A DNA stretch of 32,000 bases from contig JAWCFL010000005.1 in the NCBI GenBank assembly GCA_038858525.1, positions 30,001 to 62,000 of the forward strand, given 5' to 3'. This stretch comes from Candidatus Jordarchaeales archaeon (GTDB lineage Archaea > Asgardarchaeota > Jordiarchaeia > Jordiarchaeales > Freyrarchaeaceae). The position numbers and the translations under genes are program-made. Under the pieces are notes generated by a model. It worked only from the letters and a program-made list of their open reading frames with translations. It was not told the DNA's origin and searched no databases. Below, one piece after another: positions 14,862-22,535 of the stretch (the stretch's first letter is position 1; every line of letters begins with the position of its first letter).

Positions 14862-14946
14862 CGGCCCCGAGGGGATTCGAACCCCCGACACCCGGCTTAG
14901 GAGGCCGGTACCCTCTCAGAACACATCCTGGCTGGGTTACGGGGCC
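14862..14946 (-). tRNA. tRNA-Arg(CCT) with a 10-nt D-loop intron (14915-14924, position 20a/21)
   Basis: GGCCCCG TA ACCC AGCCAGGAT [GTGTTCTGAG] A GGGT A CCGGC CT CCT AA GCCGG GTGTC GGGGG TTCGAAT CCCCT CGGGGCC G. All four stems pair and the mature length is 75 nt. Confidence 0.95.
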
Positions 14947-15046: not shown

Positions 15047-15143
15047 GCGGGCGTAGTCCAGCCTGGTCTAAGACGTCGGCCTGCCACGCCGAGGACCCGG
15101 GCGGCTAACACAAAGCCAGGGACTTCAAATCCCGGCGCCCGCA
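15047..15143 (+). tRNA. tRNA-Gly(GCC) with a 22-nt T-arm intron (15102-15123, position 53/54)
   Basis: GCGGGCG TA GTCC AGCCTGGTCTA AGAC G TCGGC CT GCC AC GCCGA GGAC CCGGG [CGGCTAACACAAAGCCAGGGAC] TTCAAAT CCCGG CGCCCGC A. Confidence 0.95.
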
Positions 15144-17058: not shown

Positions 17059-17257
17059 GGGGGCGTAGCGCAGCTAGAACGGCTTATAAAAAGTGGTAAA
17101 GTAGCGCGGCTGGCTCCAGAAGCAATGAGAACAAACTGGTGCGCTGACCGGAGATGATGACCTTCTGGAGCTCCGAGCTGGAGAGGAGTACCCCCAGAAG
17201 CACCAGTTGGTCGTGGGTTCACCCTTTACAGGGGGCCTTAAAGTCCCACCGCCCCCA
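17059..17257 (+). tRNA. tRNA-Trp(CCA) with four introns: 17078-17100 (18/19), 17120-17201 (37/38, containing nested 17184-17199) and 17221-17240 (56/57)
   Basis: Spliced product: GGGGGCG TA GCGC AGCTAG|GTA GCGC G GCTGG CT CCA G|A CCAGT TGGTC GTGGG TTC|AAGT CCCAC CGCCCCC A. This is a 74-nt canonical cloverleaf (199-23-82-20=74). Confidence 0.93.
17121..17179 (+). ncRNA. Intron-encoded box C/D guide RNA for tRNA-Trp Cm34 and Cm39
   Basis: AGC stem, C ATGAGAA, 12-nt guide CAAACTGGTGCG, D' CTGA, spacer, C' ATGATGA, 12-nt guide CCTTCTGGAGCT, D CCGA, GCT stem. The N+5 rule lands on C39 (17203) and C34 (17116). Confidence 0.92.
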
Positions 17258-20952: not shown

Positions 20953-21240
20953 TTAGCCACCATGGGTTACACTCAGCACAGTTACAACGTCTCCATCGTT
21001 CACCTTTGTATTTAGCCCCTCGAGCACCCTTACATCTCTTTCGTTAAGCAATACAAGCATTCCCGGAGCCACTCCTCCTCCATTGACAACCATGCAGTAA
21101 GCCTCTTTACTAAGAGCTGACGAGAGGACGTCTCTAACAGACGTTCCGTTCTCCACTTTTACATTTAAACTTCTGGCTCCAACTACTCTTGCTAGCCTTA
21201 ATGGAAGCTCAACCTTAACCTCCATATGCCTCCCCGTCAC
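20953..21240 (-). CDS. MoaD/ThiS/SAMP ubiquitin-like beta-grasp protein
   Basis: LVLLNERDV...GLNTKVNDGDVVTVLSVTHGG with C-terminal diglycine. Confidence 0.93.
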   Translation of the reverse strand: MTGRHMEVKVELPLRLARVVGARSLNVKVENGTSVRDVLSSALSKEAYCMVVNGGGVAPGMLVLLNERDVRVLEGLNTKVNDGDVVTVLSVTHGG

Positions 21241-21262: not shown

Positions 21263-21328
21263 TCATCAGAGGAGATGCATCTCCTCACAGCCGAGCTACG
21301 GCTCAGAGTAGGTCAATCTCCTCATCAA
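21263..21328 (-). ncRNA. Box C/D guide sRNA, D guide predicted for the 16S rRNA GAGGAGGUGCAU region
   Basis: Minus strand: C ATGAGGA (overlapping TTGATGA), 12-nt guide GATTGACCTACT, D' CTGA, hairpin GCCG-TAGCT-CGGC, C' GTGAGGA, 12-nt guide GATGCATCTCCT, D CTGA. Confidence 0.8.
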
Positions 21329-21365
21329 TTATACCGATGAACGCTCAAATCTATAAAGCTAGCGT

Positions 21366-22535
21366 TCACCTCAACACTGCCCTAACTCTTCTTAAGGCTA
21401 CGAGGGGAAGCGCCTCAAGTATGACTCTTCTGCATCCCTTACGGCCAACGAGAAGGTCTGAGACTAATCTTTGAAGCAATTTTGACGTCACATCTAAACT
21501 CTCTCCGCCTCTTCTTTTAAGGAAGAGATCCCTAAGCCAAAGGCTCCATTTTAACTCGCCTCCAATCTCCCTCCTAAGTCGCTCACCATACTTCGTCATA
21601 CAATTCCATTCTTCCTCGTAAGATTCAATTATGGTTTCAGCGCCCATTCTCCCGCTTTCCATCGCAAAATACATGCCCTCACCAGTTATCGCCGAAACCG
21701 CTCCCGCAGCATCCCCAAGAGCAATCCATCTCTCCCCACAAATAGTCTTTAGAAGGCCTGAAAGAGGAACTACTGCGGTCTCGAACTTTAGAATTCTCCC
21801 CCCTTTAAGCTTGGGCTTTACTAAGGGGTGGCCTCTAACTAAATGGTCTAAGTAATTCTTGAGTGGGACTTTAACTTTTGAGAGTAGCGCCCCCACACCG
21901 ACCACCAACGAATTTCTTCTCGGAAAAATCCAAGCGTAGCCAAAAGGTGAGACCTCGCTACCATAGTAGAAGAAGTTTCTGTCTCCGAACAACATATCAA
22001 TATTCCCTTCACTGACCTCTATAATATACTGGACGCATAACCCCAGCTGGTCTCTCCTCCATTTCCACCCTGAACTTCTCCTTGAAAGCGAGAAGACTCC
22101 ATCAGCAAACACGACTGCGTCGCACTCGTAACTTCCGTTTCCATGGCAGGAAACACCTTGACTACTAAACAAAACCTCGTTCACTTTCTCCCCTCTGACA
22201 ATTACCCCTCCCTCTCCCTCTACTCTTTCAGCTAAGTAGAGTCCAAGCTTTGTTCTGTCGACGTTCATCCCCACTCGCTCGTGATAGTCAACATTAAACT
22301 GCTTGTCGCCTACGGAAACGGCGACGCCATACAGCTCTCTTTCGGCAACATCCAAGCTAATTCTGAATTTTTTAACGGCTCTCTCGGTAAGCATTCCTCC
22401 ACAAGGCTTCTCCCTGTTCGGCGTCTCCCTCTTATCAGTGACCACCACTCTCAAACCGGCTTTCGCCAAGTGTTCACCGCAAATTAATCCAGCAGGTCCA
22501 CCTCCCACGATCACAACGTCGGCTCTCATTTTCAT
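21366..22535 (-). CDS. Geranylgeranyl reductase family FAD-dependent oxidoreductase
   Basis: VGGGPAG Rossmann motif, KPCGG, VDRTKL, FADG, GYAWIFP, LGDAAG...GEGMYFAM. Confidence 0.93.
   Translation of the reverse strand: MKMRADVVIVGGGPAGLICGEHLAKAGLRVVVTDKRETPNREKPCGGMLTERAVKKFRISLDVAERELYGVAVSVGDKQFNVDYHERVGMNVDRTKLGLYLAERVEGEGGVIVRGEKVNEVLFSSQGVSCHGNGSYECDAVVFADGVFSLSRRSSGWKWRRDQLGLCVQYIIEVSEGNIDMLFGDRNFFYYGSEVSPFGYAWIFPRRNSLVVGVGALLSKVKVPLKNYLDHLVRGHPLVKPKLKGGRILKFETAVVPLSGLLKTICGERWIALGDAAGAVSAITGEGMYFAMESGRMGAETIIESYEEEWNCMTKYGERLRREIGGELKWSLWLRDLFLKRRGGESLDVTSKLLQRLVSDLLVGRKGCRRVILEALPLVALRRVRAVLR

Follow-up and report, generated by a model that had tools for sequence, protein, structure and literature searches.

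A small box C/D sRNA encoded in this Jordarchaeales genome most likely directs the 2'-O-methylation of two guanosines of the 16S rRNA, one on each strand of helix 34 (h34), as judged from the complementarity of its two guides. The RNA is very probably a genuine, uncatalogued archaeal box C/D sRNA, with all hallmarks of the class that could be examined in the sequence being present, and it is highly probable that the feature is explained by a double-guide box C/D sRNA acting on both h34 strands. The two target sites adjoin C1054 and A1196 (E. coli numbering) of the decoding region.

The sRNA gene and its surroundings

A preliminary description of this DNA had proposed a box C/D sRNA between the GGR and SAMP/MoaD genes, with two 12-nt guides and CTGA motifs as boxes D and D', and all of these parts were found there on the minus strand. 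Within the window, i.e., the whole stretch of 32,000 nucleotides that was analysed, the following features are concerned:

21366-22535, minus strand: gene of a geranylgeranyl-reductase-family FAD oxidoreductase (GGR; PF22578), the upstream neighbour
21350-21367, minus strand: putative BRE/TATA-like promoter element, nearly invariant columns in four congeners
21263-21328, minus strand: box C/D sRNA gene; ends estimated, boxes spanning 21266-21325; orthologs throughout the order
21319-21325, minus strand: box C, ATGAGGA variant, unchanged in four congeneric genomes
21307-21318, minus strand: D' guide, 12 nt; predicted Gm target G1163 of the 16S rRNA, 3' strand of h34
21303-21306, minus strand: box D', CTGA; CCGA in one congener
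21289-21302, minus strand: internal stem of 4 bp that closes the C'/D' kink-turn and has a loop of 5 nt and a bulged base
21282-21288, minus strand: box C', GTGAGGA; other variants in relatives
21270-21281, minus strand: D guide, 12 nt; predicted Gm target G1006 of the 16S rRNA, 5' strand of h34
21269-21286: perfect 18-bp palindrome that starts with the last five bases of box C', runs through the D guide and ends with one base (the first) of box D
21266-21269, minus strand: box D, CTGA, in the four congeneric genomes compared
20953-21225, minus strand: gene of a Urm1/ThiS-family ubiquitin-like protein (SAMP/MoaD-like), the downstream neighbour

Box C (ATGAGGA) at the 5' end and box D (CTGA) at the 3' end correspond to the RUGAUGA-like and CUGA motifs of the class, and the GAGGA box variant is frequent among RNA-seq-verified archaeal sRNAs. 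From box C to box D the sRNA measures 60 nt with guides of 12 + 12 nt, archaeal box C/D sRNAs being ~50-70 nt long with a pair of 10-12-nt guides (PMC7994747). Between the guides, the succession of CTGA, a 4-bp stem, a 3-nt bulge and GTGAGGA has the layout of a kink-turn or K-loop; the internal stem is paired in 93.8% of the cells in the four congeners, while its loop differs in sequence and length. In relatives, boxes and guides are more conserved than the flanks. An alternative C box, TTGATGA at 21328-21322, was rejected, as it is lost in two congeners whereas ATGAGGA is invariant.

The proteins with which such an RNA would act are encoded in the genome: fibrillarin (E 2.7e-97), a 398-aa Nop5-like ORF adjoining the fibrillarin gene and recognised by eye, and two matches to the L7Ae family. 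In Rfam, no family reached its cut-off for the sRNA; the best was sR42 with 18.4 bits against a cut-off of 38, a top score owed to box similarity, and sR43 and sR33 likewise stayed below theirs. The sRNA pattern had no match among phage records. Two further C/D-box-like elements in the window, 2330-2389 on the minus strand and 17121-17177 on the plus strand, are sub-threshold Rfam matches, and another clean C/D sRNA candidate lies elsewhere in the genome (G000:C53:7779, plus strand), the D' guide of which pairs strongly with the 23S rRNA of a congener. A genome-wide census at strict thresholds, which proved too insensitive, returned only 2-3 candidates.

The BRE/TATA-like element begins at the GGR stop codon, and its TATA-like part TTTATAGA at 21357-21350 lies ~25 nt upstream of box C, a spacing at which transcription would begin with the 5' end of the sRNA; a similar element is present in a relative (G004). 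A promoter of their own is described for only about 20% of archaeal C/D sRNAs (PMC7994747). The same element may also drive the SAMP-Usp genes, in which case the sRNA would form part of their 5' leader. The SAMP gene likely starts at the ATG at 21225, with a purine-rich SD-like site at 21235-21229, the longest ORF starting from 21240; in the predicted leader fold, no guide was seen to mask the SAMP ribosome-binding site.

Predicted targets on helix 34

The 16S rRNA gene of the genome is located at C12:4061-5556; the 23S rRNA of the genome itself is not assembled, and 23S matching was done on that of relatives. A target search against the RNAs of the genome placed both guides on its own 16S rRNA. 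The D guide, for which the preliminary description had given 11 bp of 16S complementarity with one G-U, indeed pairs over 11 bp with a G-U at +6, and by the +5 rule its target is G1006 (C12:5066). The D' guide had been left there with no assignable target, a statement that can be revised: it pairs over 11 bp, with G-U at +1 and +10, and would target G1163 (C12:5223). Each guide therefore exceeds the ~10 bp of pairing expected of archaeal C/D sRNAs and has a Watson-Crick pair at +5. Shuffled guides score equally well on the 16S rRNA in 0.7% (D) and 1.1% (D') of cases, and in 2.9% and 3.9%, respectively, once 23S rRNA of a congener is added. For both guides the own 16S rRNA is the top rRNA match, the pairings with 23S rRNA of relatives being weaker (runs of at most 9 bp with wobbles).

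G1006 and G1163 correspond to E. coli 1050 and 1197, the numbering being anchored on the E. coli row of the alignment of Dennis et al. (2015). [quoted passage not shown] The guides cover E. coli 1046-1056 and 1193-1203, which we take, from the standard 16S structure, to be staggered halves of h34. It is credible that both 16S targets of the sRNA are situated on this helix.

Changes in relatives bear on the assignment. At D' guide +3, this genus has A where the 16S rRNA has U, and G004 and Ca. Freyarchaeum deiterrae (G006) have G where the 16S rRNA has C, and this compensatory change of guide and 16S rRNA supports the D' target. Moreover, the D' wobble at +10 becomes a G-C pair in the G004 and Freyarchaeum orthologs, and the D wobble at +6 becomes a G-C pair in the Freyarchaeum-type and Baldrarchaeia orthologs. 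In all five genomes of the family the U-G wobble at D guide +6, beside the target pair, is kept; a second target that would explain it was looked for and none was found. A G-U next to the target pair could lower guide activity. A degenerate version of the sRNA in another Asgard family (G018) has a mismatch at guide +6 against the 16S rRNA of a relative.

It could also be that the D' guide aims at the tRNA D-loop (Gm18) instead of, or besides, the 16S rRNA. The perfect complement of this guide looks like a D-loop in which G18-G19 would fall at +5/+6, its duplex with the 16S rRNA contains two G-U pairs, and a spliced target could have been missed with many tRNA genes intron-split or unassembled. 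We nevertheless consider a tRNA target improbable, as the tRNA gene regions that were located, an incomplete set, pair over at most 7 bp with the D' guide, and as the orthologous D' guides follow the 16S rRNA, including the compensatory change at +3, and lose the D-loop-like complement. ARAGORN reported only 11 tRNAs in the whole genome, which fits heavily intron-split tRNA genes, and a relaxed run for tRNAs returned only noise; two tRNA genes in the window (14863-14946, minus strand; 15047-15143, plus strand) apparently carry non-canonical introns. Additional targets in 23S rRNA or tRNAs may exist alongside the two in h34, because the own 23S rRNA and many tRNAs are unassembled or were not found. 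A literature search found no experimentally mapped Sulfolobus Gm at E. coli 1050 or 1197, and the table of the P. abyssi 30S cryo-EM study holds no Gm at these positions.

Distribution in Jordarchaeales and other Asgard archaea

Conservation in relatives, on which the preliminary description had made its sRNA depend, is broad: the boxes are kept, and orthologs were found in 11 of the 11 Jordarchaeales genomes searched, among them a representative of the second genus in the family and the full set of six genomes from the sister family. In three congeners, boxes, both guides and the internal stem are retained while the flanks have diverged, and the order GGR-sRNA-MoaD/SAMP holds wherever the neighbours could be read (congeners, G004, G005, G006). 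Part of the Freyarchaeum-type orthologs have a degenerate D guide: in four genomes of the same order (L066:1538-1605 and L067-L069), its pairing is down to a run of 7 bp and the D' guide still pairs over 10 bp; this decay suggests that 1197 is the better-maintained target site.

Wider pattern searches covered up to 400 Asgard genomes, with reversed-pattern controls giving 1-2 matches per search. Two Baldrarchaeia genomes carry a minimal canonical version predicted to aim at 1197 and 1050 (as judged on a Jordarchaeia 16S rRNA), and the degenerate version in G018 represents one further Asgard family, in a genome that has no assembled 16S rRNA. Among Hodarchaeales-type Heimdallarchaeia, the sRNA occurs in 21 of 22 genomes of one family and in one of two of the other (22 genomes in total); the assignment to Hodarchaeales follows from the uL16 proteins of this order, which cluster with records named Hodarchaeales. 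These copies sit between the uL16 and Pth2 genes, and their D guide is shifted by one base so that it would aim, on their own 16S rRNA, at E. coli 1051, the eukaryotic Gm1271 site.

In three genomes of two other Asgard families (G155, G157 and G158; L036, L128 and L129), the D' guide for 1197 is present, but the spacers are longer and the D guides bear no relation to this one. Pattern matches in the families f7, f25 and f14 were set aside as chance, as they show no full box layout and the inspected ones resemble coding sequence. By exact patterns, the two-guide combination was not found in most families of Loki- and Thor-size, which does not show its absence there. The Hodarchaeales-type orthologs (L073-L093, e.g., L082:2203-2295) contain a long covarying hairpin between D' and C', the loop of which carries a conserved GGACACC (20 of 21 exact). 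The Hodarchaeales 16S rRNA contains the complement of this motif in the helix 35 region, 34 nt past the point at which the D target begins, a complementarity that resembles the "extra base-pairing" described for snoRNAs of yeast and humans (PMC3116282).

The palindrome across box C' and the D guide

A perfect 18-bp palindrome had been highlighted as unusual in the preliminary description. It is present at 21269-21286, but it is less remarkable than it appears, since the genome contains 15 perfect palindromes of at least 18 bp and since an enumeration of the guides that still pair with the target, combined with the GTGAGGA C' box, yields 18 bp for 2 and at least 14 bp for 8 of 112 guides. With other C' box variants, the palindrome in that enumeration never exceeded 12 bp. 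It can be understood as a by-product, because the guide complements a GGAG-containing target, GAGGA is part of the C' box, and the symmetry is then completed at two free positions; the perfecting base, U instead of C at guide +1, also gains one pair with the 16S target. The palindrome reaches 18 bp in this genome only and looks like a one-species accident: the three congeners have 14, 12 and 6 bp, and the other Jordarchaeales have 6-8 bp, within a background of 4-8 bp.

The self-complementarity could nonetheless serve a real sRNA as a functional switch, masking the D guide until L7Ae or temperature opens the hairpin or dimer. Energies of the isolated 18-mer speak for such masking (-9.2 kcal/mol for folding and -35.1 for self-dimerisation, compared with -18.0 for guide and target, at 37 C), as does a 6-bp pairing of the C-box end with the D guide that persists in all four congeners and within which the wobble U's of both guides fall; the D guide is ~65% paired in the protein-free ensemble. 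Evolution of the sequence points the other way: the palindrome shrinks in the congeners, where three of the seven hairpin pairs are broken and none of the seven is changed on both sides, which is not what a conserved alternative helix would leave behind. The full-length RNA gains no more from dimerisation (-8.9 kcal/mol) than the palindrome-less ortholog of G004 (-12.0 kcal/mol), its predicted protein-free fold (-26.2 kcal/mol) joins the D guide to the C-box end and not to C', and the masking fold is weak or missing in the Freyarchaeum-type and Hodarchaeales orthologs. Furthermore, the symmetry follows from target and box variant, and binding of L7Ae to a kink-turn sequesters the GA dinucleotides that the hairpin would need. 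The self-masking hairpin, dimer or switch of the preliminary description is therefore not upheld, and we rate a functional switch as quite unlikely. Modelling indicates that the naked transcript may misfold or dimerise in vitro, so that the palindrome matters only practically, for the handling of protein-free transcript.

Another reading dispenses with a functional RNA and takes the palindrome as the DNA operator of a dimeric regulator of the SAMP-Usp genes; lying ~45-60 nt downstream of the conserved TATA-like box and ahead of the SAMP gene, it would be suitably placed for this. The preliminary description had named such an operator as a way in which its proposal could fail. In relatives, it is the one-strand pattern of boxes and guides that is conserved and the symmetry that is not, and other Asgard classes retain this pattern, which covaries with the 16S rRNA, at unrelated loci, so that an operator is left with hardly any probability.

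Proposed mode of action of the double-guide sRNA

The boxes with their conservation, the synteny, the complementarity to and covariation with the 16S rRNA, and the presence of the proteins in the genome are the observations on which a mechanism can be built, and from these we infer that the RNA would be expressed, assemble into an RNP, direct methylation and possibly act as a chaperone. Transcription would proceed from the adjoining upstream TATA-like element, L7Ae would bind the two kink-turns C/D and C'/D', and Nop5-fibrillarin would be recruited to the L7Ae-bound sRNA. The target of 2'-O-methylation would then be the nucleotide that pairs with the guide base five positions upstream of each D box, which is G1163 (E. 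coli 1197) for the D' guide and G1006 (E. coli 1050) for the D guide. Because the guides cover staggered halves of h34, the sRNA would have to engage the pre-16S rRNA before h34 closes. It may also keep the two h34 strands close together, which is the chaperone idea of Dennis et al. (2015).

Comparison with known guide RNAs

Dennis et al. (2015; PMC4644070, Table 3) list double guides for opposite strands of one helix in Nanoarchaeum equitans, namely sR15 for h30 and sR17 for h28, and the long-range double-guide C/D sRNAs sR2, sR53 and sR56 were described in Pyrobaculum (Lui et al., 2018; PMC6009581). The sRNA described here is like these five in that its D and D' guides are directed at opposite strands of one 16S helix, more than 100 nt apart, and it differs from them in the helix (h34) and in the lineage. 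All five have been proposed to act as folding chaperones (PMC4644070; PMC6009581). No sRNA with the h34 target pair is listed in Table 3 of Dennis et al. (2015; PMC4644070). Taken singly, both sites have precedents. E. coli 1050, which is 16S G1026 in the Dennis alignment, is a predicted target of Sulfolobus acidocaldarius sR6, Pyrobaculum calidifontis sR49, Ignicoccus hospitalis sR310 and Methanopyrus kandleri sR120 (PMC4644070, supplement), and the consensus guide of Rfam sR43 (RF01128) also points to 1050. These five share with the present sRNA the guanosine of the h34 5' strand and the register, and S. acidocaldarius sR6 also uses the D box for it; their second guides aim elsewhere, and they have C at +6 where this family has the wobble U. 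E. coli 1197 (16S G1184 in the Dennis alignment) is a predicted target of P. calidifontis sR32 (PMC4644070, supplement), which reaches the same guanosine of the h34 3' strand in the same register but through the D box, its partner guide aiming at the nearby C1205 and not at the opposite strand. Each single target is thus already predicted in other archaea, and it is the pair of targets on one sRNA that is not listed in PMC4644070. Few archaeal guide RNAs are directed at both strands of a single rRNA helix, and the present sRNA extends their list to h34; RNAs of this kind are the strongest candidates for chaperones of small-subunit folding.

In eukaryotes, yeast C1274 and A1427 are equivalent to E. 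coli C1054 and A1196 (PMC13231172); since A1427 equals A1196, E. coli 1197 is yeast G1428 and E. coli 1051 is yeast G1271. Yeast Gm1428, guided by snR56, is human Gm1490 and Arabidopsis Gm1431, so that the D' target is a methylation site common to yeast, plants and humans, and snR40 methylates yeast Gm1271, which is human Gm1328. The two sites are situated in h34 close to the decoding centre, and -1 frameshifting was ~1.2-fold higher when Gm1428 was lost (PMC2794176). The snoRNAs snR56, SNORD25 (U25) and AtsnoR19 (clan CL00049) have the h34 target, the D' slot and the register in common with the sRNA described here, the D' guide of which lies at the Gm1428-equivalent base in the same column register of the snR56 consensus alignment. 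In Rfam, snR56 (RF01188) is the top match by bit score of the Freyarchaeum ortholog (18.2 bits against a cut-off of 54), and it gave no match to the sRNA of this genome. The likeness is confined to boxes and guide, where the shared target forces it, and the snR56 consensus, unlike the present sRNA, has no evident D guide for h34. As to the 5' strand of h34, the Hodarchaeales orthologs would aim at the identical base as snR40 and SNORD32 (Gm1271, Gm1328), i.e., 1051, and the sRNA of this genome one base 5' of it (E. coli 1050, yeast G1270); snR40 uses the D' box (PMC4344503), whereas the Asgard RNAs use the D box.

Both eukaryotic families, snR56 and snR40, were assigned to LECA by Hoeppner and Poole (2012), who recognised no archaeal counterpart of the 1197-equivalent site of yeast, plants and humans and for whom sR12 was the sole clear site-equivalent archaeal case, with convergence not excluded (PMC3511168). 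A single ancient Asgard family clamping h34 might be the direct ancestor of U25/snR56, with a second guide that kept 1050 in Jordarchaeia and Baldrarchaeia, slid to 1051 in Hodarchaeales and was later split onto a separate snoRNA. We regard this descent as conceivable but rather doubtful, as 12-nt guides are dictated by their target and common descent with the eukaryotic snoRNAs is therefore inseparable from convergence. If true, it would give individual LECA snoRNAs a traceable archaeal origin, and the copies of Jordarchaeia, Baldrarchaeia and Hodarchaeales form a testable series, in which the Hodarchaeales guide lies one base over, at the very site that is methylated in eukaryotes.
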